This document shows, one piece after another, positions 16,924-30,362 of a stretch of 53,137 nt of DNA. Source of the stretch: a virus. Its lineage: Duplodnaviria > Caudoviricetes. The stretch is taken from positions 1-53,137 of the IMG/VR virus record IMGVR_UViG_3300043443_000196; one strand, written 5' to 3'. The position numbers and the translations under genes were made by a program. The notes below the pieces were generated by a model. That model ran no database searches and was not told where the DNA came from. It saw only the letters and a list, made by a program, of their open reading frames with translations. The first letter of the stretch is position 1; each line of letters starts with the position of its first letter.

Positions 16924-16930
16924 TATTTAG
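16924..16930 (-). promoter_or_regulatory. Candidate late promoter CTAAATA upstream of gp13
   Basis: Overlaps the stop codon of the upstream gene; followed by a GAGG RBS. Confidence 0.6.
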
Positions 16931-18567
16931 TTGGTTTCCGCCGCCAGTGTTTGTAGTATCTTCTGTTTACTCAAATCGTAATCAGGTAAGATTATAATTT
17001 TGTACGTAGCTTCTCGCGTTTCTAGGGTGACAGATGGATTTGAAATGTCATAGGATCTCGCTTTTATATACGCCCATAGTATTACAAGATCTGTCTGTTT
17101 CTCATAACTGGATATTTGAACTGTTTCTCCAGAAGGAAATGTCACAGTGGAACTCTGTACTAGCTGAGTACTCTTTAGATCCAGATACTCTTTGGTTGGT
17201 GCTAATGCATCCAGAGATTCAACTCTAAAGAACATTCTAGAATCTTGAACCGCAATTATGTTCAGATCTTTTATAAAAATGGCACCAGTATCATAATCGA
17301 TCGTTCCGACTGTTCTGACGTATTCAGGTGTTATCGTATCAAACCACTCGTATAAATTTATATTCCCATAGCCATCATCTTTGAGGGAACACAAGTAATT
17401 TCCAGGAATGAAGAACTTGGTTGAGTAGAAATTATTACCAATTCTTGATTGTTTAATTTTCGCACTAAATTTCGTGTTATAATCTATACGGGTATTGTAA
17501 ATAGGTACCACTTCTTTGGATAAAACGAATGTCGACGATTCTGCATATACCGCTCTTGGTGTGAGAACGTTAAATGTTGCTTGATTACCGGTATAGCTAT
17601 AAGAAATAACTCCAGCTGGGTTGTCGTCAAGATCGACTTCAACTATTTCCGTTATTATATTTGCATCCTCTGAGAAACTGACAGTTACAGTGTATGTTTC
17701 TGGATCAGAAGTTTCTGATTGACGTATTAATCTCAGAGAAGACAACGGTATAAATCCACCAACAGCTGGACCCCCAGGCGATCCAGTGACATTTCCATTA
17801 ACGTTCAGTAGAGGGTACGCTTTGACTGATACTTGCGCATTGCAAAATAGAGGTACACCAACACTAATATCCGTATCAACTAATAAAGAACCAGAAAGAT
17901 TCTTTGATACATTTAGTTCGGCATCGTTGATTGTCAACGATTCAATTGACGCTGATAAATCCTTTTGAACAGTTTCCGAAACATTTGACGTTACAATTAC
18001 CTGAATATCGCCTAATATATTATTGGCGACAAATAAGTAAGCATTAGCAACCGATCCAGTGACATTAAGGCTGCTTGAATTGGGGTAAACTACTACTATT
18101 TCGCCGGAGACATCACCGGAAATATCAATAGTCGCTTGCAGCAGCTTATCTATGTTAAGCACTGTACTGGTTACATTCGTAGCCTGTACACTGGTACTTA
18201 ATGGATTCAGTATAAACGGCGCTGCAACATCAGAAGTTACCGCTGCAGTGATGTTCGCCGAGGCAGAATTATCTAGCTTTGCGTCGCCAGTTATAGAACC
18301 GGAGACTGATAAACTGGTTACAAGATTGTTGTTTAGTTTTACATCACCAGTTATAGAACCGGATGCATCAATAGAAGATCCAGCATTATTAACGAGTTTT
18401 ACATCACCAGTTATAGAACCGGAGACTGATACTGACGCCGATAAATCTCGTAGAACCGTTATTTCATTAGATGTGACTGCTGATACTGTTATCGATGCTG
18501 ACAACAGTATCGGTAATGACCCCTGCGACGCTAAGGCAGCAGAGGCTAATGCGTAATTAGCCGCCAT
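16927..18567 (-). CDS. Chimeric putative structural protein: N-terminal ~20-aa beta repeats plus a gp6 C-terminal-like domain
   Basis: SxSxSGSITGDxKL repeats; residues FYSTKF...LKDDGYGN...VGTIDYDTG align with gp6 FLSTRF...LKDDGRGN...VGTINYKTG in this same window. Confidence 0.7.
   Translation of the reverse strand: MAANYALASAALASQGSLPILLSASITVSAVTSNEITVLRDLSASVSVSGSITGDVKLVNNAGSSIDASGSITGDVKLNNNLVTSLSVSGSITGDAKLDNSASANITAAVTSDVAAPFILNPLSTSVQATNVTSTVLNIDKLLQATIDISGDVSGEIVVVYPNSSSLNVTGSVANAYLFVANNILGDIQVIVTSNVSETVQKDLSASIESLTINDAELNVSKNLSGSLLVDTDISVGVPLFCNAQVSVKAYPLLNVNGNVTGSPGGPAVGGFIPLSSLRLIRQSETSDPETYTVTVSFSEDANIITEIVEVDLDDNPAGVISYSYTGNQATFNVLTPRAVYAESSTFVLSKEVVPIYNTRIDYNTKFSAKIKQSRIGNNFYSTKFFIPGNYLCSLKDDGYGNINLYEWFDTITPEYVRTVGTIDYDTGAIFIKDLNIIAVQDSRMFFRVESLDALAPTKEYLDLKSTQLVQSSTVTFPSGETVQISSYEKQTDLVILWAYIKARSYDISNPSVTLETREATYKIIILPDYDLSKQKILQTLAAETN
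18287..18431. repeat. 60-nt period tandem repeat (3 copies) in the chimeric protein gene
   Basis: CCAGTTATAGAACCGGA recurs at about 18287, 18347 and 18407. Confidence 0.8.
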
Positions 18568-18570
18568 CCA

Positions 18571-19836
18571 TTAGATTTCTAATAAACCTGGTAACCTTTC
18601 CCCACCATCTTTAACCGCACAAAGCCATGCGCTCGTGACGCAAGAGTTTATACTTCTCATCCATTCATTTGGAAAGTGCGTATCGACACGGTACTTTTGG
18701 AATCTTATACCTGTGTTTCCAAGGTATTTAGCCAAATTGGCATTCGTGTAGTACATGAAGCTATTTTCGTTCCAGAAACTAACGTGCGTCGGATCTTGGA
18801 ATGCACCCCTTCCATCGGTGCTAGGCACATCGATAAACGCCCAGCCGCCATTCGCAAGAACCCGATGAATCTCTTTCATTGATTTGATCGGATCTTTCAA
18901 GTGTTCAAGAATATGGCTTGCGTTTAGTACTCCAACAGAATTGTCTTCGAATGGTAGACCGTTATTCAAGTCTGCGTTAATATCAGCTTCTTCTCGGTTG
19001 TCAACAGTAATGAATCCATCCAGAGGATTGATACCAGCGCCAATATCCACCTTTAATAATCCCTTTAGTTCTGCTTCTCGCATAGCCAAACGCATTGCAT
19101 ATTCTCGGAACAGTTCGACGGTTCTTATTTGGATGGCTTCATTTCTATGATTAAGACATGTATTATCACCAGTCAATCTGTAGATATACAGAACTTTGGG
19201 AATACGCTTCATCTTAGTGTGTAGATACGTTTTGATCATCAGCTGATGATCTTCACATACATATTCATTGACGTCATATCCGCCGACCGCTTCATATGCA
19301 GTCTTTCTCCAAGAACGAACATGATCTGGCGCATACCAAATAAACGATACTGCTTGACTAGATGGTTCAAAACTATTCATTGCGTATAGTTCTCGACCAT
19401 TGTGGTTGTACATCCGATGTGACCACCCGTAAGCAACCCCATAAGGATTGAATTCGATGTCGCCCATTGGTAATACTGCATTATCGCTATACACGAATCC
19501 AACAGATTCGTCTTGATATGCGTTATACAACTCTTGCAGGCAATCTGGGGTCAGAAGGTCATCATGATCCGCCTCAACTAGAATATCACCATTACCCAAG
19601 CTGAATGCATTATTTTTAACATGACCTATATTCTCGTAGCGTTCATCATCAAAATAAACTTCCACTTGAGGGTCTTCTACGATGTACTGGGGAATTTTAT
19701 TCGGGTCGAATCCATTATTTGCGTAAATAACCCATTCCCAATTAGTGTATGTTTGTGCCTTTATACTCCGATAAAGTTCGATAAGATAAGGTAAGTTGCT
19801 CTCACTGTGCTCAGGCGTAATCAAACTAAATTTCAT
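18571..19836 (-). CDS. GT2 glycosyltransferase fused to a class I SAM methyltransferase
   Basis: FSLITP, QTY.NWEW, EADHDD (DxD) and CEDH in the N-terminal half; VDIGAG, SHILEHL and EIHRVL..GG in the C-terminal half. ATG at 19836; the ORF track extends to a TTG at 19848. Confidence 0.88.
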   Translation of the reverse strand: MKFSLITPEHSESNLPYLIELYRSIKAQTYTNWEWVIYANNGFDPNKIPQYIVEDPQVEVYFDDERYENIGHVKNNAFSLGNGDILVEADHDDLLTPDCLQELYNAYQDESVGFVYSDNAVLPMGDIEFNPYGVAYGWSHRMYNHNGRELYAMNSFEPSSQAVSFIWYAPDHVRSWRKTAYEAVGGYDVNEYVCEDHQLMIKTYLHTKMKRIPKVLYIYRLTGDNTCLNHRNEAIQIRTVELFREYAMRLAMREAELKGLLKVDIGAGINPLDGFITVDNREEADINADLNNGLPFEDNSVGVLNASHILEHLKDPIKSMKEIHRVLANGGWAFIDVPSTDGRGAFQDPTHVSFWNENSFMYYTNANLAKYLGNTGIRFQKYRVDTHFPNEWMRSINSCVTSAWLCAVKDGGERLPGLLEI

Positions 19837-19844
19837 GGTGAATC

Positions 19845-21560
19845 TCAATCAAAGAAGAATAAGTGAATCAAGCGACCAGTCTCGTCGGAGTTTCCGAAAT
19901 AGTTTCCTGCTGAATGGATACAGCTTGCGTCCATAATAACCAGTCTATTATATATATTGCCAGCAACATCTACGGTGTCAAACTTAGTGGAATCAAAGAA
20001 GTCACCGTTGAAAGACGCCTCAACGTTTGGTTCTCGTCTACTTCTAGCTCCAGTGATGTTTGATCGATGTAGTCTGGTTCCGCTCTGTACTGGGGCATTT
20101 GGCGTCAAATAAATCATAGCTGCCCACTCTTGACCGTCATAATGATATACTTGTGGATCTTTGGATGTGGTTATCTGGAAAACTCCATTCATTCCATATT
20201 CTTCGAATCTAGTGATCTTCTGACCAATAATTGATTCGAAACGTTCTTTTATGCCATCTGGGAGATATGATCTAGTTGACCGCTTACCCTTGTACCAACG
20301 AATGTCTTCTTCAAACTCAACCTGAGTCAATGCCAACTGTCGAACTGCATCTGGGTTTGCATAGAAATTATCAACGATAAACATTCTCTTTGATGGGGTT
20401 GGGTTCATCGCCAATGGGCTGATGAAACTCTTTGGTTTATACCGCGAAATAGCCATCTCGTGTAATCCTTGTATAAAACCAGTTTTGCTGTCGTTGTACT
20501 GGTGTTCTTCAATAAATAGAGTTCTTCTTGGGAAAGGATTTGTTCTTTCTGGCTGCATCAGTATAGATGTGACCTTGAACATATTCTCAAAATCCTCAGT
20601 ATCCCTATAAAGTTCAGCCAAAGAAATTAAATGATCGTTTCTATCAGGTGCGAACCATTCCGACTCTTCCAATGTCTTAATACAAGATTCAATATCGCCA
20701 AGATATCTTTGTAAATACGCACTCTGGACCAGACCGAAATAACACATTTCATGTTCGATCCATGCGTTTGGGTCTTTATCTAATACTCTAAGAGACGCAT
20801 TTACATACTCTCTGTAATAGTATATCGCACGCCTCGCGAATTCTTTTTGTTGAGATTCACCAAGAGGGAATGCCGGAGACCATGTTGCGTCAAAATAACT
20901 CTTTGCCAAATACCAGAAATGATAAAACCGAGTGAAGAAAGAATCATCCCTAATTAGCTCTTGTTCTAATTCAAGTGAATGATTAATGAACTTTTTGGGA
21001 TCACTCCAACTCTGCCCCTCGTTAAATCCGCGCTGGCGAATCTTATTTGGTAATTGATGTGTTTTATAATTAGACCCTATATTTGGGTCAAGGCTGTAAA
21101 TTGTTTCGTGACATGGGTCATGATGGAACGCCCAAGGGATATTAGCATTCCACATCCATGTTCTATAATATAGGCAACTGCCGCCTTGCGCTGTTATGTC
21201 AAATGCTTGTATTGATTTATCTGACAAAAGACTCCAATCAAAATCATCATCGACCTCAAGAACCTCGTCGCAATCCATTTTGAGGATCCAATCGCAACCA
21301 TGATCAGTTGATTGACAATAACGAATTAGATGATCTCGATTGTAACCGAATCCGACCCAACCCTCTTCAATATCATAAATCTCACCGGATAGTTTATGAT
21401 CAATCAGAAATTTCTTGGCAATCTCGTCCGAACCATCAGTGGACCCATTGTTCTGCATAACGTAATAATCTACATTACCTAAACATGAGTTTAACATACG
21501 TTCAATAACCTTTGCTTCGTTCTTGAACATGGTTATCATTACAATTTTTGGTTTATTCAT
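19845..21560 (-). CDS. GT2 glycosyltransferase, TPR-like region and C-terminal 2OG-Fe(II) oxygenase (DUF6445-like) fusion
   Basis: M.KNE..VI.R.L.S, GSTDGS, F..NR, MDCDE and HE; helical FWYLAKSY.D region; C-terminal IVDNFY.NPD.VR, HYD, WAAMIYLTP, NRLVI, IH and GRL..LFFFD. Confidence 0.85.
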   Translation of the reverse strand: MNKPKIVMITMFKNEAKVIERMLNSCLGNVDYYVMQNNGSTDGSDEIAKKFLIDHKLSGEIYDIEEGWVGFGYNRDHLIRYCQSTDHGCDWILKMDCDEVLEVDDDFDWSLLSDKSIQAFDITAQGGSCLYYRTWMWNANIPWAFHHDPCHETIYSLDPNIGSNYKTHQLPNKIRQRGFNEGQSWSDPKKFINHSLELEQELIRDDSFFTRFYHFWYLAKSYFDATWSPAFPLGESQQKEFARRAIYYYREYVNASLRVLDKDPNAWIEHEMCYFGLVQSAYLQRYLGDIESCIKTLEESEWFAPDRNDHLISLAELYRDTEDFENMFKVTSILMQPERTNPFPRRTLFIEEHQYNDSKTGFIQGLHEMAISRYKPKSFISPLAMNPTPSKRMFIVDNFYANPDAVRQLALTQVEFEEDIRWYKGKRSTRSYLPDGIKERFESIIGQKITRFEEYGMNGVFQITTSKDPQVYHYDGQEWAAMIYLTPNAPVQSGTRLHRSNITGARSRREPNVEASFNGDFFDSTKFDTVDVAGNIYNRLVIMDASCIHSAGNYFGNSDETGRLIHLFFFD

Positions 21561-22267
21561 TTTGATCTTGATTCAATAAATTTCATAACAGTTTCGTCAT
21601 TCTTTTGTTCTGGTGCTGGGCTAAACAACGCTCTTGGTCTATTCGATGCACCGTCAGGGACTTTAGTGAGGTAATAGGCAGCTATACTCTTTCTGTAATT
21701 TCCTTCTGGGCATTTTATTCTGTCATAAAAACCATGCCAAGAGTTCTTTGACGCATCAAACAGAACAGCTCTGTTGAATTTATTCTCAATAACTACTCTT
21801 TTTTCTTTTGGTTGATTTGTTATTGGATCATGACTCCAGAGCTCCAGATTCCCACCCCAAGCATTATCCCAATTCTCCGATACGTAAACAATTAAGTTAT
21901 ACTTACGCAAGAGTTTCATCTTAGGGTGAATTGAATAATCCATGTGAACATTCAGGCGCCCGTCATTACCATGAATATGCCAGCCACCGCCATGTAATCC
22001 GGGATCGGCATAAAGACTCTTTTCGCCAGTCAACTCTGATATGTGATCAACGAAGTCTTTTGATACTAACGTTGACAAAAAACCGTAAGTCTCTGGTGGA
22101 AACTTATACCAATCGTGGATGGTTTTCTTGTGTTCGATTGGATTGTTGTAAAACAACCAATCTTGAGAGTCGTATGCCGGAAATTCTGAAGATAGTTTCT
22201 TTGCTAGATCTTCAATAAGGAAATCGTCTATAATCCAATAGTCAAAGGGATCATTACCATGTTGCAT
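21557..22267 (-). CDS. 2OG-Fe(II) oxygenase (prolyl-hydroxylase-like)
   Basis: PF....IDDFL, DP.L.GGG.H, L.VHMD (HxD), WGG.LELW, FNRAV.F, SWHG and RKS.A.YY. Confidence 0.9.
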   Translation of the reverse strand: MQHGNDPFDYWIIDDFLIEDLAKKLSSEFPAYDSQDWLFYNNPIEHKKTIHDWYKFPPETYGFLSTLVSKDFVDHISELTGEKSLYADPGLHGGGWHIHGNDGRLNVHMDYSIHPKMKLLRKYNLIVYVSENWDNAWGGNLELWSHDPITNQPKEKRVVIENKFNRAVLFDASKNSWHGFYDRIKCPEGNYRKSIAAYYLTKVPDGASNRPRALFSPAPEQKNDETVMKFIESRSK

Positions 22268-22274
22268 AATAAAA

Positions 22275-22853
22275 TCATCTCCATTTTGGTCCTTCGAACC
22301 ATGCTGCTATACTGTATCTAGTTCCCGCTGTCACCGGGAGAGCCCGATGTCGAAGGAATGACGGGAAGAAAATAATCGTTCCCTGTTGATTTAGTTCATC
22401 TGCAGAAGGTGGGTACAATGCATCACTTATTTCGAATTGACCCCCTTCGTAATCATTCGGGTCTGAGAGCTGTATAATACATGACAGCTTTCTATGATAA
22501 TGCGGGTCGCCATTTAACCAAACTGTATCTTGATGTAGTTTGTACTCCCCCAAATATGACGAATCGTATTCAGCAATTTGAAAATAGTTCAATCTGGTTA
22601 TATGAAAATTAAAGAAATCTTCATTTGCTTGTATAGCAGTTTTCCATAATGTGTCGTATAACTCTTGGAACTTCCAATTACCTCTATTGACAAACCTTAC
22701 ATTACTTCTTCTGAACTGTTCGTCAACTACTAATTGATTATTAAATCCGCCTATGACCGCTTTATCAGCTGGCATTTCTTTTGCAAGTTTGATTATGTTT
22801 TCACATGCATATTTGCTCAGATATGACCTAAAATAACACCATTCTCCGTTCAT
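22275..22853 (-). CDS. 2OG-Fe(II) oxygenase (PKHD/prolyl-hydroxylase-type), paralog B
   Basis: RRS.VRF, HQD, RKLS..IQLSDP.DYEGG and FPSFL.H...PVT.GTRYS...W..GP.WR. Confidence 0.92.
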   Translation of the reverse strand: MNGEWCYFRSYLSKYACENIIKLAKEMPADKAVIGGFNNQLVVDEQFRRSNVRFVNRGNWKFQELYDTLWKTAIQANEDFFNFHITRLNYFQIAEYDSSYLGEYKLHQDTVWLNGDPHYHRKLSCIIQLSDPNDYEGGQFEISDALYPPSADELNQQGTIIFFPSFLRHRALPVTAGTRYSIAAWFEGPKWR

Positions 22854-22854
22854 A

Positions 22855-23433
22855 TTATCTCCATTTTGGTCCTTCGAACCATGCTGCTATACTGTATCGT
22901 GTTCCTCTGGTGACTGGGTTGGCTTGATGTCGAAGGAATGACGGGAAGAATATCATTGTGCCTTGCTGTCTCAGATCTTCCCTTGATGGAGCTTCCGATG
23001 CTTCATTTATCTCAAGATCTCCGCCATCATAATCATTGGGGTCAGATAATTGTATTACACAAGAAAGTTTTCTGTGATTCTTTGGATCGTCATTTAACCA
23101 AAACACATCATGATGTGTTTTATATTCGCCTTTATATGAAGAATCATACTTGGCTATCTGTATGAATTCTAGCTTGCTTATATGAAAACCAAAGAACTGT
23201 TCGTTGGCTTCAATTGCATTTTTCCATAAAGAATCAAATACGTGTTGGAAATCAGGGTCGCCTTTATTGGCAAACCTGATTTCGCTTCTTCTTATGGAAC
23301 TATCTTGCAGAGTATTGGCGCCATTGCCGAGTTGTCCAGCCTGACTCGGTATCTTTTGGGCGCCTCTTATTATCTGCTCGCAGGTTGTTTTATCAAAAAA
23401 TGACTTATAATAACACCACTCACCATTCATCAC
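22855..23433 (-). CDS. 2OG-Fe(II) oxygenase (PKHD/prolyl-hydroxylase-type), paralog A
   Basis: Same motifs (HHD, RKLS, H, TRYS); tandem paralog of the downstream gene. Confidence 0.92.
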   Translation of the reverse strand: MMNGEWCYYKSFFDKTTCEQIIRGAQKIPSQAGQLGNGANTLQDSSIRRSEIRFANKGDPDFQHVFDSLWKNAIEANEQFFGFHISKLEFIQIAKYDSSYKGEYKTHHDVFWLNDDPKNHRKLSCVIQLSDPNDYDGGDLEINEASEAPSREDLRQQGTMIFFPSFLRHQANPVTRGTRYSIAAWFEGPKWR

Positions 23434-23444
23434 GAATCCTTATT

Positions 23445-25112
23445 TTACAGAGACTTCTTCAATTCCTCTATCTGTTTCTTTTGTTCCTTCAGAGCTTCAA
23501 TCAATAAAGGAACCACTCTTGCATAATCTACAGTGATGTATTTATTTCCGCTTATTGTGTGTCCGAATTTATTAGAATCGAATGGCGCTGGCTTAACGAT
23601 TTCTGGTAATACTTCTTGTATTTCTTGCGCCAAGAAACCGATTCTCTGTCTTGAATCAGTGAACCCCAATTCTTTAGCTAGATCGTTGTATGTGTAATAC
23701 ACGCCATTTATTTTAGAAATTTTCAAAAGTGGGTCTGATATCGGACCTGACACTTCTTTTAGTCGACCGTCTGAGTAATACGCAGTTATATCACCACTTG
23801 CATATAAGTAACCAGTTGGAGCTGCTGGGGTGTTTACCGCCAGGGAAGCTACTACATACGCTGTAGTTGTTGCTCCTTGTGGACCTTGAAATCCAGGGGC
23901 TCCTTGGAAACCTTGCGCTCCCTGGAAACCCTGTGCTCCTTGCGCACCAACTGCTCCTTGGAAACCTTGCGCGCCAGTTGGACCTGGGAATCCAGTAGCG
24001 CCCGTTGCTCCTTGTGGACCTTGTGCACCTACCGGACCCTGTGGACCCTGTGCGCCAAGCAATCCTTGTGGACCTTGGAAACCCTGTGCGCCTTGGAACC
24101 CCTGTGCGCCTTGTGCACCCTGTGGACCTTGGAAACCTTGTCTTCCCTGGGTTCCAGCTACACCCTGGAAACCCTGTGCTCCTTGAAAGCCCTGTGAACC
24201 TTGTGCTCCTTGTGGACCCTGAACTCCGGGTGCTCCTTGTGGACCTTGAGTTCCAGCTGCCCCTTGGAATCCTTGTGGACCTTGGAACCCCTGTGCGCCT
24301 TGGAAACCCTGTGCTCCTTGTGCGCCAACCGTGCCTGTGGCTCCGGCGAATCCAGTAGCTCCAATAAATCCTTGTGGACCCTGCGCGCCAGAAACTGCAC
24401 TTTGAGCGCCCTGTGGACCTCTGTTTCCCGCGAAACCAGGGAATCCTGTTGCTCCTTGGAAACCTTGTGCTCCTTGGAAACCTTGTGCGCCAGTTAGGGA
24501 TGACGCTGCGCCTTGGAACCCCTGTGCTCCTTGAACACCCTGTGGACCTATTGCTCCCTGTGCTCCCTGGAAACCTTGCGCCCCTTGAACCCCGGTGACG
24601 CCAACGAATCCTTGAACTCCACTCGCAGTTCCTTGTGGACCTTGGAATCCAGTTGCTCCTTGGAAACCTTGTGGACCTTGGTTTCCTGGAAACCCAGTGA
24701 AGCCAGCCGGACCCTGAAACCCTTGAACTCCACTCGCAGTTCCTTGTGGACCTTGGAATCCAGTTGCTCCTTGGAAACCTTGTGGACCTTGGTTTCCTGG
24801 AAACCCAGTGAAGCCCTGTGCTCCCTGGAAGCCCTGTGCTCCCTGGAATCCAACAGGACCAGTTGGACCATTTTGTCCAGCAAATCCATTAAAACCAATG
24901 GCTCCCTGAAAACCTTGTGCTCCCTGAAAACCTTGTGCTCCTTGGAAACCTTGTGGACCAGTAGTTGCGCCCTGTGGACCCTGAAATCCGGTGGCGCCCG
25001 TTGCGCCCGTTAAGCCTTGTAGAGCAGTTTGTGGACCAATCCAAGTGCCTGTAGAATCGATTACGTCACTAAGAACGGAGACGCCATTTTTTACGGTAAA
25101 CTTGTTAATCAT
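23445..25112 (-). CDS. Collagen-like fibre protein 3 with C-terminal peptidase S74-type intramolecular chaperone
   Basis: Long Gly-X-Y tract (GFQ/GAQ/GPQ); [21 protein letters not shown] and [15 protein letters not shown] coiled coil. Confidence 0.92.
24610..24815. repeat. Exact 95-nt direct repeat (111-nt period) in collagen gene 3
   Basis: 24610-24704 is identical to 24721-24815. Confidence 0.8.
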
Positions 25113-26799
25113 CTATCTGCTCCATTAGAATGTCTATTTCTCTTTGTTGTTCTTTAATAGTTTCTATAATCAATGGAACAATACGTTCATACTTCACCGT
25201 CAGGAATTCTTCAGTAGTGTCATTTATTCCTTCGCAGTCATTAAATGGGGCTACTGCGACGACTTCCGGTAGAACTTGTTGAACTTCCTGTGCTAACAGA
25301 CCAACTTGTCTGGAATAGTTGTTGTAACCATATTTCTCGGCATCTTTGTTTTGTGTGTAATAAACGCCATTTAATTGATATAACTTGGTCGCAGCATCTT
25401 TAATATATTCGATGTTATCCTTTAATCTCACATCTGAGTAGTACGCCACTATATCTAACTGCGCTCTTATGGTTCCTGCTAGTCCAACTGGGGTATTAAC
25501 GCCAAGGTATGTCCCATTACTGTAAGTTACTGTAGATTGACCTGTAAATCCCTGCGGACCAGTTACTGACGATGCTGCTCCCTGGAATCCTTGTCGACCC
25601 TGGAATCCAGCAGGACCAGTTACTGACGACGCCGCGCCTTGGAACCCCTGTGCTCCTTGTGCACCAACTGCTCCTTGTGGACCTTGGAAACCCTGTGCTC
25701 CTTGTGGACCTTGGAAACCGCTCGTTCCATTTGACGGACCCTGGAAACCCTGTGCTCCTTGGAATCCCTGTCTGCCTTGGAATCCAGTAAAACCAGTGAA
25801 TCCTTGCGCTCCTTGGAATCCAGCTATAGCTACTGCGACGCCCTGAGCTCCTTGGAAACCCTGTGCTCCTTGGAATCCCTGTCTGCCTTGGAATCCTGTT
25901 GCTCCCTGTGGACCTTGGAATCCAGCTATAGCTACTGCGACGCCCTGAGCTCCTTGGAATCCCTGTGCACCTTGGAACCCCTGTGCTCCCTGGAAACCCT
26001 GGACTCCTGGGGAACCTGTTGGACCTTGGAAACCAACTGATCCTTGCGGACCTTGGAACCCTTGTGCTCCAACTGGACCGGACGGACCTTGGAATCCCTG
26101 CGCGCCTTGCGCGCCTTGCGGACCTTGGAAACCTTGTGCTCCCTGGAATCCTGTTGCCCCCTGTGCGCCTTGCGGACCTCGTGTACCCTGTGCGCCTTGG
26201 AAACCTTGTGCGCCTTGGAAACCCTGTGCTCCCTGGAAGCCCTGCGCGCCTTGAAATCCTTGTGCTCCTTGTGCTCCTTGTGGACCTTGAGCACCCCACG
26301 CTCCTTGGAATCCCTGTGCACCTTGGAATCCCTGTGCTCCCTGGAAACCCTGGACTCCACTCGCGGCTCCTTGTGGACCTTGGGTACCAGTGAATCCCGT
26401 CGGACCTCTGGCTCCTTGGAATCCCTGTGCACCTTGGAACCCCTGTGCTCCCTGGAAACCCTGGACTCCACTCGCGGCTCCTTGTGGACCTTGGGTACCA
26501 GCTGCTCCTTGGAAACCCTGCGCTCCTTGCGCTCCCTGTGGACCTTGAACTCCAGGCGCACCAACTGGACCGTTTAATCCCGTTGCACCCTGGAAACCCT
26601 GCGCTCCTTGGAAACCCTGTGCTCCTTGTGTTCCTTGTGGACCTTGGAAACCAGAAGCTCCAGTCAATCCCTGTGGACCCTGCGCTCCTTGTGGACCAGT
26701 TATATTTGCTGTTGGACCAACCCATTCACCAGAAGCATTGACGACAGCCTGGTTACCGACAGCAATACCGTTTAATACAACGAATTCTTTAATAGCCAC
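25105..26799 (-). CDS. Collagen-like fibre protein 2 with S74-type chaperone
   Basis: Gly-X-Gln tract; [21 protein letters not shown] and [17 protein letters not shown]. Confidence 0.92.
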
Positions 26800-28465
26800 G
26801 GTTTCCTCTTATTTCTATTTTTTCTTTTATAGACTTTATCAATTCTTGCTGTTCTTTTATAGCTTGCAGCAAAGTAGGGACTAATTTGTCGTACTTTATA
26901 GTGAGGTACTTATTGTTGACTGGAGCCTTCTCAACAGCCTCGGGGAACACTTCGTCAACTTGTTGCGCTATTAAACCAACAGATCTGGGGTGTTCTTCAT
27001 ATATTCCAAGCTCTTTTGCCAGTTTATTAGAAGTATAATACACTCCTGTTATTCGCATTATCTTGTCGATACAATCCGGGATCTCATTGATGTTTGTTTT
27101 AAGTCTTGCGTCGGAAACTCCAGCAACGATATCCGACGTTGCTCTCACAGTTCCGGTTGGACCTGCAGGAGTTCCTATTCCAACTGCTGACACGGATGCA
27201 GCGGGTACGCTCGTTGCTCCAGCTGCTCCTTGCGCGCCTTGTGGACCTATTACACCCTGTGCACCCTGGAAACCCTGCGACCCTTGCGCGCCTTGTGGAC
27301 CTATTACACCCTGTGCACCCTGAAATCCAGTCGCTCCTTGTGGACCTTGGAATCCTTGCCTTCCGGGGAATCCAGTTGCGCCTGGTGTTCCAACGGGACC
27401 AGCGATTCCTTGATTACCGATAAAACCCTGTGCTCCTTGAAACCCCTGTGCTCCTTGAGCTCCAGCGAATCCGGGAAATCCAGTTGCGCCTTGTGCGCCC
27501 CAAGCTCCCTGGAAACCTTGTGCTCCTTGGAAACCTTGCGCACCTTGTACCCCTTGTGCGCCAGTGAATCCGCCAAATCCAGCCGGACCCTGCGCGCCCC
27601 ATGCTCCTTGGAATCCCTGTCTGCCTTGGAATCCTGTTGCTCCCTGGAAACCCTGTGCTCCTTGCGCGCCAACCACGAAACCTGCTGGACCCTGGGCTCC
27701 TTGCGGACCTTGGAAACCTTGCGCTCCTTGTGCACCTGCGGAACCTTGCGCGCCAGTGAACCCCGTAAACCCTGTTGTTCCCTGAAAACCTTGTGCTCCT
27801 TGGAAACCCTGCGCGCCTTGTACACCGGATGGACCTTGGAATCCCTGCGCGCCCTGAAAACCTTGTGCTCCTTGGAAACCTTGAGCTCCCGTGACCGATG
27901 ATGCTGCGCCCTGGAACCCCTGCGCTCCTTGGAAACCCTGTCGACCTTGGAAACCTTGTGGACCTTGGTTTCCTGCGAATCCCTGGAAACCCTGAGCTCC
28001 TTGGAAACCTTGTGCTCCTTGAGCACCCCAAGCTCCCTGGAAACCTTGAACACCCTGTGCTCCTTGCGGACCTTGGTTTCCTGCGAATCCCTGAAAACCT
28101 TGCGCTCCCTGGAAACCTTGCGCCCCTTGAGCACCCCAAGCTCCCTGGAACCCCTGTGGACCTTGAGCTCCTTGTCTACCCTGGAAACCTTGCGCCCCTT
28201 GGAATCCAACTATTGCATTAGCCGGACCCTGTGCTCCTTGCGGACCTTGGAAACCTTGTCTACCCTGGAAACCTTGAGCTCCTTGACGACCTTGTGGACC
28301 CTGGAATCCAGCTGGACCAGATCCTCCCTGTGGACCCTGAAAACCTGTTGGACCAACTGCTCCAGATAGATTCGTGCCTGGACCAACCCAATTTCCACCG
28401 GAGTCGATGATTTTTATAGCACCGACATAAATGCCTTGTTTTAGCTTAAAGTTTGTTATTGTCAT
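26789..28465 (-). CDS. Collagen-like fibre protein 1 with S74-type chaperone
   Basis: Gly-X-Gln tract; VSDARLK, GLIAQQVDEVFPE and IKYDKLVPTLLQAIKEQ. Confidence 0.92.
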   Translation of the reverse strand: MTITNFKLKQGIYVGAIKIIDSGGNWVGPGTNLSGAVGPTGFQGPQGGSGPAGFQGPQGRQGAQGFQGRQGFQGPQGAQGPANAIVGFQGAQGFQGRQGAQGPQGFQGAWGAQGAQGFQGAQGFQGFAGNQGPQGAQGVQGFQGAWGAQGAQGFQGAQGFQGFAGNQGPQGFQGRQGFQGAQGFQGAASSVTGAQGFQGAQGFQGAQGFQGPSGVQGAQGFQGAQGFQGTTGFTGFTGAQGSAGAQGAQGFQGPQGAQGPAGFVVGAQGAQGFQGATGFQGRQGFQGAWGAQGPAGFGGFTGAQGVQGAQGFQGAQGFQGAWGAQGATGFPGFAGAQGAQGFQGAQGFIGNQGIAGPVGTPGATGFPGRQGFQGPQGATGFQGAQGVIGPQGAQGSQGFQGAQGVIGPQGAQGAAGATSVPAASVSAVGIGTPAGPTGTVRATSDIVAGVSDARLKTNINEIPDCIDKIMRITGVYYTSNKLAKELGIYEEHPRSVGLIAQQVDEVFPEAVEKAPVNNKYLTIKYDKLVPTLLQAIKEQQELIKSIKEKIEIRGNRGY

Positions 28466-28492
28466 TGTATCATCAAGCCGCTGTAGTTATTT

Positions 28493-28499
28493 TATTTAG
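28493..28499 (-). promoter_or_regulatory. Candidate late promoter CTAAATA heading the collagen operon
   Basis: Intergenic, about 28 nt upstream of the first collagen ATG. Confidence 0.65.
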
Positions 28500-28502
28500 T
28501 TA

Positions 28503-29177
28503 TTACACATTAATAAGTATTCTATGCATAACAACTGTGGTTGATGCATTAACCGGAGTCAATAACAAAGAAACGGTTCCAGAAGATAATGAACAATCAA
28601 AAGAACCAAGATCAGAGCTGGTATTAACCAATCCATACTGAGAAAGGTATGCTGTTGTTCCATTATGGACAACCAGAATATCAGAAGATTGATAACTAGA
28701 ACCACTGGACAACTGTACTGTGTATTTCGCAGTTCTATATGTCGCTGAAGGAAATGTATCGATTGCAACTTGAGAAGTTGTGGTTGTCGTATATGTTATA
28801 GATGACATCCTGGTCTTATTTGATAACGCTATACTACCATTAACTTGCAGTTTGTCTAATCCATTATCAGTTGCAGTGCCAAGTAATATGTTTCCGTTGT
28901 ATTGTCCGAGCTTAATAAGCCCAGTATCAAGTACTTCTATACTTGGTATACCAGAAACGTCATTTACTGAGTATATGGTTCCTGATAAAGAATTTGTTAT
29001 AGAGAATAATTGACCAGCAGTTCCTTCAAAAGAAATCGTTCCATTATCAGTTGGGTATACATTTAAAGATATTGTTTGCGCGCCAACCGTCGAACTGGCA
29101 CCCTTGAACTCAATCTTAGGTTCGGCAGTCTGACCCTTATTTGGCGTGATTAAAATATCTTTATCTGTTAATGCCAT
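28503..29177 (-). CDS. Putative virion structural/fibre-associated protein
   Basis: Ser/Thr/Gly-rich; C-terminal IDTF....YRTAKY.VQ...Q.S.ILV.H.GT domain shared with the 1061-aa fibre. Confidence 0.7.
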   Translation of the reverse strand: MALTDKDILITPNKGQTAEPKIEFKGASSTVGAQTISLNVYPTDNGTISFEGTAGQLFSITNSLSGTIYSVNDVSGIPSIEVLDTGLIKLGQYNGNILLGTATDNGLDKLQVNGSIALSNKTRMSSITYTTTTTSQVAIDTFPSATYRTAKYTVQLSSGSSYQSSDILVVHNGTTAYLSQYGLVNTSSDLGSFDCSLSSGTVSLLLTPVNASTTVVMHRILINV

Positions 29178-29204: not shown

Positions 29205-29212
29205 TATTTATA
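29205..29212 (-). promoter_or_regulatory. Canonical T4 late promoter TATAAATA
   Basis: Exact match, about 28 nt upstream of the 224-aa gene. Confidence 0.7.
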
Positions 29213-30362
29213 AACCAAATCTGCTGCGAAGGGAATTAAAATTCTCATAGACCTCATCTGAACTTAGTGCTCTACTATAAACTCTTGCTACATATAAATC
29301 TCCAACAAAAGCTCTTTGATCTGCATCTCTCCATCTACCAATTCTGTCGATACCCCATCCATTTAATGGCAAGTTAATATCAACACCCTCAGTAACATTA
29401 TTATTAACGTATATTCGCAACTTAACTCCATCATAAGTGGAAACTATATGATAGAAATTATTATTTTGTAAAGTTTGAGAATGAGTTAAGCTCTTTTGTC
29501 CACCAGTAGTGCTAACTGAAATAAATGCTTTAGAACCAAGTATTCTTACATAATCTGCGGCTATTGTTGAATAACCGAAGTACATCTGGTCTTTTGTTAT
29601 ATTAGTCGGTTTAATAAAAACTTCCTTGGTGAAACCAGTTGAACTTCCTATTATGTTCGCTGTTATAAAATCTGTTGTTCCATTAAAAGAGAAAGTGTTG
29701 TCTGATGCATAAGTCAGACTTGAAGAAGTTATTGAGTTAATTGATGTTAGGTCTTTTAATGAAGTTGTTATAGTCCTAGAACCCTGATTATTGGTTGTGC
29801 TCATATATGGTGTCATAAATGACATTTCTTCTAATTGAGCTCCCCAGAAATATGCAGTTCCAGAACCAGCTGGCATAATAAATTGCAAACCTCTATCACC
29901 AGTTCCAGAAGCCGGAAGTGCACTGGTGAATGTAAACCTTTGCCATGTAGAAGTTAGATTTATACTTCCGCCACCTCCAGCGTCGTTCATGGCAAACCAA
30001 ACTGACATAGGAACTGGTGCGCACGCCCATATACTAATGGTGTATGTTACTCCAGCAGTTACATTAGCTAGACCCCATATTAAACCCCAAGCACCAGTAG
30101 CACCACAAACAGTTCCAGAATCTCTAACTATTTTCGTTGCAGTGTAATTACCTTCTGGATCTTTTATATCAGCTGTATTATATGTTATGTTATTGGTGTT
30201 GCCTGCACAGTATGCATACCAATTTGTTCCATTTAAAGTGTCGCTATCGTTTAAGCATAAATTTACAGAAGGGGGACCAAGCCAAGATTTCTTAGTGTTT
30301 CCCATGTCATACTGGAATACTAATCCATTAGTCACTTCATTTGGACCAGAATAAGAACTCAT
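29208..30362 (-). CDS. LamG/concanavalin-A-like lectin domain protein with an inserted carbohydrate-binding-like domain
   Basis: VTNGLVF.YD..N.KSW N-terminus; F.FNGT.D, YHIV.TYDG....IYVN and YSRALS..EV..NFN.LR.RFG. Confidence 0.82.
   Translation of the reverse strand: MSSYSGPNEVTNGLVFQYDMGNTKKSWLGPPSVNLCLNDSDTLNGTNWYAYCAGNTNNITYNTADIKDPEGNYTATKIVRDSGTVCGATGAWGLIWGLANVTAGVTYTISIWACAPVPMSVWFAMNDAGGGGSINLTSTWQRFTFTSALPASGTGDRGLQFIMPAGSGTAYFWGAQLEEMSFMTPYMSTTNNQGSRTITTSLKDLTSINSITSSSLTYASDNTFSFNGTTDFITANIIGSSTGFTKEVFIKPTNITKDQMYFGYSTIAADYVRILGSKAFISVSTTGGQKSLTHSQTLQNNNFYHIVSTYDGVKLRIYVNNNVTEGVDINLPLNGWGIDRIGRWRDADQRAFVGDLYVARVYSRALSSDEVYENFNSLRSRFGL

Follow-up and report, generated by a model that had tools for sequence, protein, structure and literature searches.

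Collagen-like fibre genes beside oxygenase and glycosyltransferase genes in a T4-like freshwater phage suggest chemical decoration of phage collagen

Maturation of animal collagen relies on 2OG-Fe(II) oxygenases and glycosyltransferases (collagen prolyl 4-hydroxylase, LH1-3/PLOD and COLGALT1), which act on Gly-X-Y chains in the ER, and LH3 joins an oxygenase and a glycosyltransferase in one polypeptide, arranged as GT-A, accessory domain and LH domain. Mimivirus L230, a collagen lysyl hydroxylase/glucosyltransferase, is reported both to hydroxylate and to glycosylate collagen-like proteins of that virus. Among prokaryotic collagen-like fibres, the Bacillus exosporium collagen BclA is O-glycosylated on Thr in Gly-X-Thr repeats and is not known to need a hydroxylase for this, while SunS and ThuS (glycocin S-/O-glycosyltransferases) use a GT-A domain and a helical repeat domain to glycosylate small bacteriocin peptides. 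Mycobacteriophage glycosyltransferases encoded beside structural genes are said to decorate virion proteins; their targets are capsid and tail-tube proteins, with no collagen, oxygenase or methyltransferase fusion known to be involved. We know of no glycosyltransferase linked to the prolyl 4-hydroxylase of the Chlorella virus PBCV-1, a small viral P4H-type 2OG oxygenase with own-virus substrates. That enzyme of a eukaryotic virus acts on viral proline-rich repeats, as cited in PMC9301287 (Eriksson et al. 1999), and its substrates are not Gly-X-Y collagens encoded next to its gene.

A like layout is seen in the cultured cyanophages S-CAM9 and S-PRM1, in which a collagen-S74 tail fibre gene is followed by two P4H-type 2OG oxygenase genes and then by a gene for a predicted glycosyltransferase-oxygenase fusion of 613-614 aa. 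Of the two oxygenases, one is OxyA's nearest homologue among cultured phages (46% identical), and the fibre collagen is of the Gly-X-Lys type, with Lys in 37-39% of Y positions. The S-CAM9 613-aa protein matches the LH3 GT domain (5.5e-33), Mimivirus R699 (4e-32), COLGALT1 (1.2e-19) and the Mimivirus L230 hydroxylase domain (1.3e-8), supporting a predicted parallel system of LH3/COLGALT1/L230 type beside a Lys-rich collagen fibre; a literature search found no paper on this LH3-like fusion system. Their fusion combines GT25, a PLOD GT domain and an LH-like domain, whereas the locus described here has GT2-TPR-DUF6445 and GT2-MT proteins beside Gln-rich, Lys-free collagens.

The window, 53,137 nt long, is part of the genome of a T4-like freshwater myovirus with a capsid similarly near to OM43 phages and cyanophages. 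A unit of nine genes, all on the minus strand, runs from 28465 to 16927 downstream of a late-promoter-like motif, as shown in Table 1. The gene order and domain content observed agree with the sequence-only reading of three collagen/S74 proteins, three lone 2OG oxygenases, a GT2-TPR-oxygenase and a GT2-methyltransferase, borne out by Pfam, AlphaFold and Foldseek. The junctions from Col1 to p546 measure, in order, -11, -8, +11, +1, +7, -4, -4 and +3 nt, confirming gaps and overlaps of 11 nt or less, and the cassette is indeed embedded among virion genes, with genes for lectin-domain and baseplate proteins upstream and those for gp13-, gp14- and gp15-like proteins, terminase, sheath, tube, portal and capsid downstream. 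The motif NNTAAATA was also found before the scaffold, tube, sheath, gp13-like and p224 genes, and the minus strand of the window has 28 copies of TAAATA, the plus strand 6; no TAAATA was found within the cassette, the next copy lying at -23 of the gp13-like gene. The ACTAAATA copy upstream of Col1 probably acts as a late promoter. Close gene spacing is ordinary in phage late operons, and the feature above chance is the gene combination that recurs in other phages, not the tight spacing.

Table 1. Features of the cassette and its upstream flank in the window.
Feature	Position	Strand	Description
p224	28503-29177	-	Immediately upstream of Col1; not part of the cassette
Late-promoter-like motif ACTAAATA	28493-28500	-	At -35 from Col1 start; promoter role inferred
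Col1	26789-28465	-	558 aa; Pfam Collagen E 5.6e-58, Peptidase_S74 E 6.9e-14
Col2	25105-26799	-	564 aa; Col1 paralogue; Pfam Collagen E 5.7e-53, Peptidase_S74 E 2.1e-12
Col3	23445-25112	-	555 aa; paralogue; Pfam Collagen E 1.7e-56, Peptidase_S74 E 5.9e-12
OxyA	22855-23433	-	192 aa; P4H-type 2OG-Fe(II) oxygenase; PF13640 2OG-FeII_Oxy_3 8.9e-18
OxyB	22275-22853	-	192 aa; PF13640 2.8e-14
OxyC	21557-22267	-	236 aa; second PF13640 type; PF13640 2.3e-14, PF13661 3.2e-8
GT2-TPR-DUF6445 fusion	19845-21560	-	571 aa; Pfam Glycos_transf_2 + DUF6445
GT2 (GT-A) domain of 571-aa fusion	21006-21560	-	Residues 1 to ~185; Pfam 7.3e-9
TPR-like helical repeat of 571-aa fusion	20442-20993	-	Residues 190-373; AlphaFold model, Foldseek
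DUF6445 domain of 571-aa fusion	19848-20390	-	Residues 391-571; Pfam 26.1 bits, cut-off 24
GT2-MT fusion	18571-19848	-	425 aa; Glycos_transf_2 + Methyltransf_11
GT2 domain of 425-aa fusion	19153-19848	-	Pfam Glycos_transf_2 5e-11
Class I SAM methyltransferase domain of 425-aa fusion	18574-19065	-	Pfam Methyltransf_11 9.1e-10
p546	16927-18567	-	546 aa; final gene of unit; probably structural

The three collagens contain 125 (Col1), 120 (Col2) and 124 (Col3) Gly-X-Y triplets, 369 in total, and in Col1 these are preceded by a conserved N-terminal domain of ~34 aa and followed by a C-terminal Peptidase_S74 intramolecular chaperone. The S74 chaperone of known proteins aids trimerisation and then cleaves itself. 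Col1, Col2 and Col3 most likely each assemble into a homotrimer of their own, all three being the same length, in which the short N-terminal domain would serve attachment and S74 would serve as chaperone. None of the 369 triplets has Lys at X or Y, while Pro occupies Y in only 11 and Thr in 36, so animal-type chemistry cannot simply apply, and the analogy with animal and Mimivirus chemistry drawn earlier fails at the substrate, a Lys target such as that of L230 being impossible here. Mimivirus also differs in that the window virus is a tailed phage, and PDB sequence searches with the window enzymes gave no match to L230 or R699. The likely modification targets in Col1-3 are X-position Pro and Y-position Thr or Gln, and the Y-position Thr resembles the residue that carries sugars in BclA.

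The catalytic residues were observed intact in all four oxygenase domains of the cassette. Across 32 OxyA homologues, H107, D109 and H169 never vary and R179 is retained in ≥90%, and the best PDB sequence match of OxyA is the PKHD-type hydroxylase PiuC (8e-8). OxyB is a tandem paralogue with 118 of 192 residues identical, and both proteins are without a peptide-substrate-binding domain, unlike the animal enzymes. OxyC keeps H108, D110, H178, R192 and S194 invariant among 55 homologues and has weak PDB matches to prolyl 4-hydroxylase 6t8m (0.006) and OGFOD1. The DUF6445 domain may be read as a fourth 2OG-Fe(II) oxygenase from its invariant H473, D475, H549 and R563 (23 homologues), the AlphaFold model of the fusion (mean pLDDT 81.5) and the Foldseek matches of the domain to AspH, LH3 and HygX.

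Structural comparison of the whole 571-aa fusion gave SunS/ThuS as the best Foldseek matches (E 2.4e-14, TM 0.56-0.64 by target length, 15-19% identity, and no oxygenase domain in SunS/ThuS), followed by AspH, with TPR and oxygenase, and LH3, with glycosyltransferase and oxygenase. The LH3 match (E ~5e-8) has TM-scores of only 0.15-0.19, and the order of GT2, TPR and DUF6445 is not homologous to the LH3 arrangement. In the GT2 domain the D96-C-D98 motif is invariant, with a weak sequence match to GmaR, while the TPR call is based on the helical repeat in the model and on Foldseek matches to designed CTPR proteins, the TPR of AspH and SunS/ThuS. The model thus supports a peptide-type GT2-TPR module joined to a 2OG oxygenase, an arrangement that would suit protein hydroxylation followed by glycosylation. 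The fusion is nearly virus-restricted: when one genome per species was scanned, two matches came up, each on a contig no longer than 4 kb, and one of these again has the order collagen-S74, fusion, GT2-MT; DUF6445 clusters in Atlas are 88-100% viral, and in some lineages DUF6445 is encoded as a separate gene.

The GT2-MT protein (model pLDDT 88.3) has a glycine-rich VDIGAG stretch in its methyltransferase domain, and its GT2 domain matches, by Foldseek, the glycan-extending GT-A enzymes WrtF, K4CP, SpsA, TarP and RmlT. This likeness to enzymes that make polysaccharides or decorate teichoic acid would suit a role in host-envelope glycan synthesis equally well. An S-CRM01 homologue, 53% identical, is located near psbA. 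The last gene, p546, had been described as a structural chimera; it is present and probably structural, and it is poorly defined, with a bactofilin-like match below threshold (22 bits vs a cut-off of 27.9), similarity to the C-terminal region of phrog_219 (E 3.7e-10) and no match in PDB or NCBIfam. Only two of 80 loci (L002 and L003) have a p546 homologue, and the gene is not conserved as part of the cassette.

In addition, we analyzed how often these genes recur together. In all association statistics the loci were picked by the same anchors, shared ancestry was ignored and simple ORF and HMM calls of our own were used. With OxyA as anchor, the best 80 of 231 relatives gave 47 clusters at 90% identity, 36 of them with ≥2 kb upstream. 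In 19 of these 36 the end of a collagen ORF is at most 100 nt upstream of the OxyA relative and in 29 at most 1000 nt, seven having no collagen within 1 kb upstream. On the downstream side, only one of the 36 has a collagen ORF beginning within 1000 nt. The loci vary in downstream genes and in collagen type, and the neighbourhoods support a tie between OxyA/OxyB relatives and collagen genes across many lineages and several gene orders. With S74 as anchor, 49 dereplicated ORFs with ≥3 kb downstream were compared. Ten of the 20 collagen-bearing ORFs have an enzyme gene in the 3 kb that follow, as against 2 of the 29 without collagen (Fisher p = 0.0014, uncorrected for relatedness); the other 10 of the 20 collagen-S74 fibre ORFs have no enzyme gene within that distance. 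With the fusion as anchor, 12 of the 24 informative clusters have the enzyme block directly next to collagen. The co-occurrence expected by the sequence-only reading is seen for OxyA/OxyB relatives (29/36 among the best 80 of 231) and for only 12/24 in the case of the trio of OxyC, GT2-TPR-DUF6445 and GT2-MT.

Collagen composition, compared over 112 dereplicated collagen ORFs, tracks enzyme content. The median share of Gln at Y reaches 49% (minimum 15%, n=92) where DUF6445 lies within 8 kb downstream, and 5% (n=20) where it does not. Collagens with OxyA have a higher Pro frequency at both X and Y, while the L030 and L034 collagens, without OxyA, have Pro in 0-4% of X or Y.

That the gene arrangement recurs in many related phages suggests chemical decoration of collagen fibres by phages, in a manner not unlike collagen maturation in animals. 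For the window, there is in our judgement about an even chance that the cassette enzymes hydroxylate, glycosylate and methylate the neighbouring Col1-3 chains; the substrate, the modified residues, the sequence of reactions and the advantage gained by the phage are what we infer. Fibres and enzymes would be made from one late transcription unit, for which a search found no RNA run. The enzymes would act ahead of virion assembly or while it proceeds, in the cytoplasm of the bacterium and not in the ER as in animals. OxyA and OxyB, perhaps with OxyC, would hydroxylate Pro, mainly at the X position of Gly-Pro-Gln and Gly-Pro-Thr, a feature shared by the collagens beside the OxyA/OxyB clade. The TPR module of the GT2-TPR-DUF6445 protein would then grip the polypeptide while its oxygenase domain hydroxylates a residue, and its GT2 domain would add a first sugar to the new hydroxyl or to Thr, after which GT2-MT would lengthen and methylate the glycan. 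The neighbourhoods and folds favour the earlier proposal that the phage hydroxylates and glycosylates its collagens, while the trio adjoins collagen in only 12/24 and the canonical substrates are missing. The methyl capping and the gains in stability, adhesion or shielding that this proposal also put forward are speculative.

The trio is mobile. In the other 12 of the 24 informative lineages it does not adjoin collagen: it is next to psbA/psbD in L080, whose 180.8-kb genome is complete, and next to thyX/RNR in L043, and in L034 and L038 it is part of larger sugar-metabolism clusters that also contain genes for FkbM methyltransferase, epimerase, sulfotransferase and additional GT2 proteins. These placements, the resemblance of the GT2 of GT2-MT to WrtF, K4CP, SpsA, TarP and RmlT, and the interpretation, in PMC7029224 and PMC12801897, of glycosyltransferases in this region of aquatic myophages as modifying the host surface, all favour a doubtful but possible alternative, by which OxyA/OxyB serve collagen and the trio builds or alters a host-envelope glycan, be it on LPS, the S-layer or some other polymer of the cell surface, perhaps to prevent superinfection, lying beside fibre genes only because the region is a hypervariable host-recognition stretch. 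However, the GT2-TPR module matches peptide glycosyltransferases best, an oxygenase fusion is hard to reconcile with LPS synthesis, and the fusion is almost missing from cellular genomes. The late-operon cassette also has no internal promoter-like motif, DUF6445 and GT2-MT directly follow collagen genes in several arrangements, and DUF6445 presence tracks Gln-rich collagens. One lineage has the order collagen-S74, GT2-MT, OxyC, GT2-TPR, DUF6445, and new arrangement variants were found in L086, L087, L104 and L228.

It is unlikely that the enzymes modify other virion proteins (p546, lectin-domain, capsid or tail proteins), even though the cassette sits within a late structural operon, the trio is present in phages without an adjacent collagen gene and virion glycosylation is known in mycobacteriophages. 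The recurrent neighbour is the collagen gene and no other structural gene, collagen composition correlates with enzyme content, and p546 is not conserved with the cassette. A point in favour of such targets is the Ofd1-like 2OG oxygenase detected in the S-SCSM2R virion proteome (PMC12801897).

A role in auxiliary metabolism, with oxygenases shifting the 2-oxoglutarate/nitrogen status of the host and fibre adjacency arising by accretion in a variable island, is very unlikely. It follows a view of cyanophage 2OG oxygenases published in PMC9602691, and such genes are many and mobile in these phages (326 phage records match OxyA); however, the OxyA clade lies downstream of collagen in 29/36 clusters vs 1/36 on the other side (best 80 of 231 relatives), one oxygenase is fused to a glycosyltransferase, and the operon is late. 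TET/JBP oxygenases with glycosyltransferases hypermodify DNA in other phages. Such DNA hypermodification is barely credible here, despite the general 2OG oxygenase-glycosyltransferase pairing and the DNA glucosylation proposed for cyanophage glycosyltransferases in PMC12801897, as the oxygenases are PF13640 and DUF6445 rather than TET/JBP, the GT2-TPR is SunS-type, and the genes lie among late virion genes rather than DNA-metabolism genes.

A further point against collagen decoration is L032, a locus with no upstream collagen, whose fusion clusters at ≥90% identity with those of the collagen-bearing L030 and L031. Upstream of Col1, the N-terminal 119 aa of p224 are 59% identical to the N-terminus of another phage's collagen-S74 fibre (BLASTP E 8e-42), and p224 may be a fibre attachment module.

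The window of 53,137 bases is the entire virus record and occurs in two DNA sequencing runs of one freshwater metagenome sample, one of which may be its source, with no RNA runs listed. Every large gene lies on the minus strand, and the genes form a T4-like structural module. In gene order, a gp6-like baseplate wedge, very large structural proteins and two proteins with ConA/laminin-G lectin domains precede the cassette, while gp13-, gp14- and gp15-like genes, the large terminase, sheath, tube, portal, scaffold, major capsid protein and a UvsW-like helicase follow it. The capsid protein shares 63% identity with that of OM43 phage Melnitz and 60-61% with those of cyanomyoviruses, and the host was left unassigned because of this nearness to both; judged from its genes, the virus is a T4-like aquatic myovirus, and the name cyanophage is avoided. 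The lectin-domain pair just upstream of the cassette probably encodes carbohydrate-binding receptor-recognition proteins, one of which has a weak match to a sialidase N-terminal domain. Over the Gly-rich collagen genes, at 24-28 kb, the G+C content rises to 52-55%, vs about 40% on either side.

A total of nine cassette genes run from 28465 down to 16927, with junctions of -11, -8, +11, +1, +7, -4, -4 and +3 nt. Pfam assigned collagen plus Peptidase_S74 to three proteins (the fibre chains Col1, Col2 and Col3), PF13640 to three (the stand-alone 2OG-Fe(II) oxygenases OxyA, OxyB and OxyC), GT2 plus DUF6445 to one (the 571-aa GT2-TPR-DUF6445 protein, here the fusion) and GT2 plus Methyltransf_11 to one (the 425-aa GT2-MT), while all NCBIfam matches of the proteins were far below curated cut-offs and gave no named equivalog. 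The ninth protein, p546, shows a bactofilin-like repeat below the threshold and matches a baseplate-wedge PHROG in the C-terminal part of that family; it has no PDB or NCBIfam matches and, among 80 related loci, homologues only in L002 and L003, and it was left out as a poorly defined member. The sequence ACTAAATA was observed at 28493-28500, 35 nt ahead of the first start codon (Col1). T4-like late promoters are of the TATAAATA type and are served by a gp55-like sigma. The NNTAAATA motif also stands ahead of the scaffold, tube, sheath, gp13-like and p224 genes (p224 being the gene upstream of Col1), and TAAATA occurs 28 times on the coding strand vs six on the other, with none inside the cassette; this set likely represents T4-type late promoters. 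Sigma-70-type sites showed no excess in the window (27 vs a mean of 25.1 in shuffled sequence). The NNTAAATA copies lie 23-56 nt before the starts of the minus-strand genes ending at 4865, 7120, 11042, 13023, 16908, 28465, 29177 and 33687. Gene calls, junctions, Pfam and the motif bear out the nine-gene layout behind a late motif that the sequence-only reading had described, as the structural module on both sides of the cassette does for its virion-gene surroundings; of the content it had listed, the collagens, oxygenases and GT2 fusions stand, and p546 is not counted.

Over its first 119 residues, p224 resembles the N-terminal part of a collagen-S74 fibre from the related locus L030 (59% identity, E 8e-42), and this looks like a shared fibre-attachment module that is found alone or fused to collagen. 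The p224 C-terminus has a weak gp9/gp10-like match (E 0.0044), which is below the cut-off. The cassette lies directly upstream of the gp13-like gene, a position occupied in T4 by gp12 and fibritin, and p224 and the collagens might be alternative or cooperating fibres of one attachment site.

Coordinates of features in the window and in related loci
Feature	Record	Position (strand)	Remark
p224	window	28503-29177 (-)	shares N-terminal 119 residues with L030 fibre
Collagen-S74 fibre	L030	8006-9241	shares N-terminal 119 residues with p224
Lectin-domain paralogue 1	window	29208-30362 (-)	C-terminal ConA/laminin-G, Pfam E 5e-14
Lectin-domain paralogue 2	window	30359-31564 (-)	C-terminal ConA/laminin-G, Pfam E 6e-21
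2069-aa ORF	window	37821-44030 (-)	between baseplate genes
1094-aa neighbour of 2069-aa ORF	window	44032-47316	matches baseplate-wedge and large virion-protein PHROGs
Equal-length collagen paralogues	window	23445-28465
S-CAM9 fibre-enzyme locus	L082	2540-11396	gene-order reading
S-PRM1 fibre-enzyme locus	L083	2558-11399	gene-order reading
Split fusion	L059	6541-8240
Split fusion	L080	10001-11717
Larger island	L034	6586-7539	holds trio or OxyA
Larger island	L038	473-5714	holds trio or OxyA
Larger island	L087	2888-10941	holds trio or OxyA

Col1, Col2 and Col3 contain 125, 120 and 124 Gly-X-Y triplets in runs of at least five, respectively, and score 177-193 bits against PF01391 (cut-off 27.2); they are collagen-repeat proteins of this family, and a triple helix is predicted. 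The three chains also match Peptidase_S74 (PF13884; 52.3, 47.6 and 46.1 bits, cut-off 22), and S-D-x-R-L-K, a putative self-cleavage motif at the conserved Ser, opens the S74 domain in each. Across the 369 triplets, the Y position holds Gln in 257, Thr in 36 and Pro in 11, the X position holds Ala in 134, Phe in 118 and Pro in 59, and Lys was observed in neither position (0/369). Since Lys is missing, Lys hydroxylation of the animal or Mimivirus type with Gal-Glc is impossible here, and canonical Y-position Pro hydroxylation could reach just 3% of the triplets. The residues available for modification would be X-position Pro, Y-position Thr and the abundant Gln, Phe and Ala; Thr glycosylation requires no hydroxylase.

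The three collagen paralogues are near-equal in length within a phage, and range from about 250 to about 890 aa between phages. Equal-length paralogues were seen in L006, L010, L013, L016, L019, L020, L025, L026, L046 and L086, as well as in the window. Their C-terminal domains sort into three groups, each common to different phages; these domains remain distinct from one another, and the collagen parts seem to undergo concerted evolution. The Gly-X-Y breaks sit at different positions in Col1, Col2 and Col3. A single staggered Col1-Col2-Col3 heterotrimer is unlikely with repeat breaks out of register, and these mismatched breaks favor three predicted homotrimers of matched length.

The oxygenases OxyA and OxyB share 61% identity (118/192 residues), and each of the three stand-alone oxygenases is above the PF13640 cut-off. 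In OxyA, H107, D109 and H169 are invariant and R179 is found in at least 90% of 32 homologues, while H108, D110, H178, R192 and S194 of OxyC are kept across 55 homologues. Both thus retain the H-x-D...H iron triad and the 2OG-binding basic residue of P4H-type enzymes, and the cassette enzymes look active from their conserved residues. OxyA and OxyB, with 192 aa, consist of the catalytic domain alone, without a peptide-substrate-binding domain, and their best PDB matches are bacterial PKHD-type hydroxylases. An animal-type collagen prolyl 4-hydroxylase was rejected for both, as the substrate domain is missing and the chains offer Pro in Y in only 11 triplets, vs 59 with Pro in X.

The DUF6445 domain (PF20043) of the fusion scores 26.1 bits (cut-off 24), and D96-C-D98 in GT2 and H473, D475, H549 and R563 in DUF6445 are invariant among 23 homologues. 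In an AlphaFold model (mean pLDDT 81.5), residues 1 to about 185 form a GT-A region, residues 190-373 a helical repeat and residues 377-390 a disordered linker, after which comes a C-terminal domain rich in beta structure. Foldseek against PDB gave the glycocin peptide glycosyltransferases SunS and ThuS as best matches (E 2.4e-14 to 1e-12, TM 0.53-0.64 by target length), which share the GT-A domain and the helical repeat with the fusion at only 15-19% identity, followed by AspH, LH3, teichoic-acid glycosyltransferases, SpsA, designed TPR proteins and HygX. AspH joins TPR to an oxygenase, and LH3 joins a glycosyltransferase to a lysyl hydroxylase. The DUF6445 part matches AspH, LH3 and HygX, and is read as a predicted 2OG oxygenase. 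By sequence, the N-terminus has a weak match (E 0.0035) to GmaR, the Listeria flagellin glycosyltransferase. In the L048-L081 lineage, the fusion is split into a GT2-TPR gene of about 373-384 aa and a DUF6445 gene of about 193-198 aa, and some of these loci carry a second DUF6445 gene ahead of OxyC. As DUF6445 occurs as a separate gene, the oxygenase is an independent module. In a complex prediction, the fusion was paired with the N-terminal 90 residues of the collagens, with an alignment as input for each; the score of 0.02 (mark 0.32) weighs neither way. Among predicted viral structures (BFVD), the best match was a 585-aa Satyrvirus protein over the full length (E 2.2e-40, 24% identity), followed by many GT2-TPR proteins from giant viruses and phages. 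The three-part GT2-TPR-oxygenase enzyme may also exist in giant viruses; these also encode collagen-like proteins.

The GT2 domains of the fusion and GT2-MT score 36.2 and 43.3 bits, respectively (cut-off 23.3); D94, D96 and D97 of GT2-MT are invariant, and both domains are predicted to have a GT-A fold with a DxD motif. The GT2-MT model (pLDDT 88.3) resembles the glycan-extending GT-A enzymes WrtF, K4CP, SpsA, TarP and RmlT. Its C-terminal domain is a predicted class I SAM-dependent methyltransferase, with 39.5 bits against Methyltransf_11 (cut-off 21.2) and a VDIGAG stretch in the translation.

The gene neighbourhoods were compared from three anchors. For OxyA, the best 80 of 231 relatives (52-78% identity; the narrower of two OxyA alignments) formed 47 clusters, and 36 of these have 2 kb or more of upstream sequence. 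Among these best 80 of 231, a collagen ORF ends upstream of the OxyA relative within 100 nt in 19/36 clusters and within 1000 nt in 29/36, while one starts within 1000 nt downstream in only 1/36. The seven clusters without collagen within 1000 nt upstream are L199, L200, L202, L218, L220, L222 and L231. As the genes downstream of OxyA relatives differ widely, the collagen link survives rearrangement, and the OxyA/OxyB-type oxygenases appear strongly tied to collagen fibres at the genomic level. For the fusion, the best 80 of 94 relatives in viral contigs formed 42 clusters at 90% identity, of which 24 were informative, their sequence extending 2 kb or more upstream of the enzyme block. In 12 of these 24 clusters (best 80 of 94), the end of a collagen ORF is no more than 100 nt from the block; collagen adjoins 10/13 blocks led by an OxyA-type gene vs 2/11 others (Fisher p = 0.012, kinship uncorrected). 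In a 17-member cluster represented by L059 and L062, about 52-61 nt separate the end of a collagen-S74 ORF (1365-1515 aa) from GT2-MT, which is followed by OxyC, GT2-TPR and DUF6445 as a gene of its own. As to the co-occurrence of collagens and enzymes in other genomes that the sequence-only reading had expected, the genes are neighbours for most OxyA relatives, and for only half of the informative clusters carrying the trio of OxyC, fusion and GT2-MT.

That the trio glycosyltransferases modify a host glycan instead of the fibres is a serious rival explanation. In 12 of the 24 informative fusion clusters, no collagen adjoins the enzyme block. The trio lies beside psbA and psbD in L080 (a complete 180.8-kb genome), beside thyX and ribonucleotide reductase in L043, and amid FkbM methyltransferase, DUF4422, NAD-epimerase, sulfotransferase, APS-kinase-like and further GT2 genes in L038 and L034; an S-CRM01 homologue of GT2-MT (53% identity) is near psbA and hli genes, and L032 is without the collagen found in L030 and L031, which belong to its cluster. 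One source reads glycosyltransferases in the fibre region of a genome as host-LPS modifiers (PMC7029224), and another proposes host LPS or phage DNA alteration for glycosyltransferases in the same region (PMC12801897). On the side of the fibres, the Col3 S74 domain as anchor gave 58 loci with 49 dereplicated S74 ORFs having at least 3 kb downstream, and an enzyme gene follows within 3 kb in 10/20 collagen-bearing vs 2/29 collagen-free S74 ORFs (p = 0.0014, kinship ignored). These loci include the orders of three small collagen-S74 genes, DUF6445 and GT2-MT (L086), of collagens, OxyA, DUF6445 and a gene run with another oxygenase and two DXD glycosyltransferases (L087), and of two collagen-S74 genes, a 315-aa DUF6445 protein and a 605-aa GT2 protein (L104). 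Phages with the trio away from collagens have collagen ORFs elsewhere (four in the complete genome G001, three in S-CRM01 and one in G002) and two further fragments (31-37% complete) have none, a count that covers trio-carrying phages only and decides nothing on co-occurrence. The tie of the glycosyltransferase fusions to the fibres is judged to be moderate. DNA hypermodification by the cassette was set aside, as neither the oxygenase families nor the genomic context suit it.

In the cultured phage records, the whole cassette was not found, a DNA search gave only one 147-nt match, the fusion had no match over its full length, and six records matched OxyC. The closest cultured OxyA homologues (46-47% identity) are from Synechococcus phages S-8S53, S-8S55, S-8S56, S-CAM9 and S-PRM1. 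In S-CAM9 and S-PRM1, a 177-aa collagen domain and an S74-type C-terminus are part of a tail fibre of 1824-1830 aa, after which come a 124-aa protein, two PF13640 oxygenases and a 613-614 aa protein labelled 'hypothetical protein' in RefSeq. Their fibre collagen has Pro in 51-53% of X positions and Thr or Lys in Y (Lys 37-39%). The 613-614 aa protein carries Glyco_transf_25 and PLOD-GT domains, and the 613-aa form matches the LH3 GT domain (5.5e-33), Mimivirus R699 (4.1e-32), COLGALT1 (1.2e-19) and the Mimivirus L230 hydroxylase domain (1.3e-8). Here a Gly-X-Lys collagen of a tailed phage is accompanied by a predicted textbook set for Lys hydroxylation and glycosylation, which lends phage collagen maturation in general much more credibility, and shows the variant in the window to be a chemically different one. 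However, such LH3/PLOD/L230-type features are not carried by the window proteins: none has a GT_PLOD or GT25 Pfam match, the fusion compares with LH3 at a TM of only 0.15-0.19, and the collagens are without Lys, and the LH3/PLOD/L230 type was rejected for them.

The sequence-only reading had proposed, by likeness to animal, Mimivirus and BclA systems, that the phage hydroxylates, glycosylates and methyl-caps its collagens. This proposal is borne out in part. Maturation of the fibres draws support from the linkage of the OxyA clade with collagens, while animal-type chemistry fails on the absent Lys and the rare Y-position Pro; the sequence of the chains demands a chemistry other than that of animal collagen. 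Modification of the fibres by the cassette is given an even chance.

Composition was compared with enzyme content for 112 dereplicated collagen ORFs that have 5 kb or more of downstream sequence; the loci were chosen by the same anchors, paralogues were counted separately and shared ancestry was ignored, and the differences are leads, not proof. With DUF6445 within 8 kb downstream, Y-Gln has a median of 49% and a minimum of 15% (n = 92), vs a median of 5% and a maximum of 68% with no DUF6445 within 8 kb (n = 20; Mann-Whitney p = 3e-7). With OxyA present vs absent, the median Y-Pro is 6% vs 0% (p = 2e-4) and X-Pro is 31% vs 20% (p = 0.04). All collagens beside OxyA-clade genes have X-position Pro (12-83%), with Y either Gln-rich or Thr-rich, and the Thr-rich, Gln-poor ones are without DUF6445. 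In L030 and L034, where the trio occurs without OxyA, Pro makes up 0-4% of the X or Y positions of the collagens.

On an improbable reading, DUF6445 hydroxylates a residue for which Y-position Gln, present in most triplets of Col1-3, would be the best candidate; the tracking of Y-Gln by DUF6445 provides a comparative lead, of which shared ancestry is a possible cause. The SunS-like GT2 would then O-glycosylate the resulting hydroxyl, and GT2-MT would extend and methylate the glycan. If true, a residue never seen hydroxylated in proteins would become the site of a new modification defining a Gly-X-Gln class of phage collagens. If the fibres are decorated at all, this would bear on host recognition, virion stability and protease resistance in natural waters, and the enzymes could serve for hydroxylating and glycosylating recombinant collagens in bacteria.

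Two statements could change with these results. Bacteria and viruses are said to be without prolyl hydroxylases for collagen and hence to have unmodified collagens (PMC3368898), and the many 2OG oxygenases of cyanophages and related aquatic myophages are mostly taken for metabolic genes, whose products in cyanophages would influence the 2OG and nitrogen status of the host (PMC9602691). From the neighbourhood data, a concrete candidate for the substrate emerges for one oxygenase clade. Viral use of prolyl 4-hydroxylase 'remains cryptic' according to a further text (PMC9301287). A literature search, with most subscription journals and supplements outside it, found no work linking phage collagens to phage oxygenases or glycosyltransferases, none joining cyanophage, 2OG-Fe and collagen, and none naming DUF6445. 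An Ofd1-like oxygenase was detected in the S-SCSM2R virion proteome (PMC12801897, section 7), and is no OxyC homologue as far as the phage-record search shows.

The distribution of the enzymes is largely viral. The DUF6445 clusters of a protein atlas are 88-100% viral, and the fusion gave two matches in cellular genomes (one per species scanned), both on MAG contigs of 2.3-4 kb. These are L152 (4.0 kb) and L153 (2.3 kb), binned in an Acidimicrobiaceae MAG and a Weeksellaceae MAG, respectively; L152 has the order collagen-S74, fusion, GT2-MT, and both are probably mis-binned phage contigs. Larger islands holding the trio or OxyA (L034, L038 and L087) were also observed, with genes for sulfotransferase, APS-kinase-like protein, FkbM methyltransferase, DUF4422, epimerase, DXD glycosyltransferases and a PF13759 oxygenase, and their content hints at more elaborate sulfated and methylated glycans.
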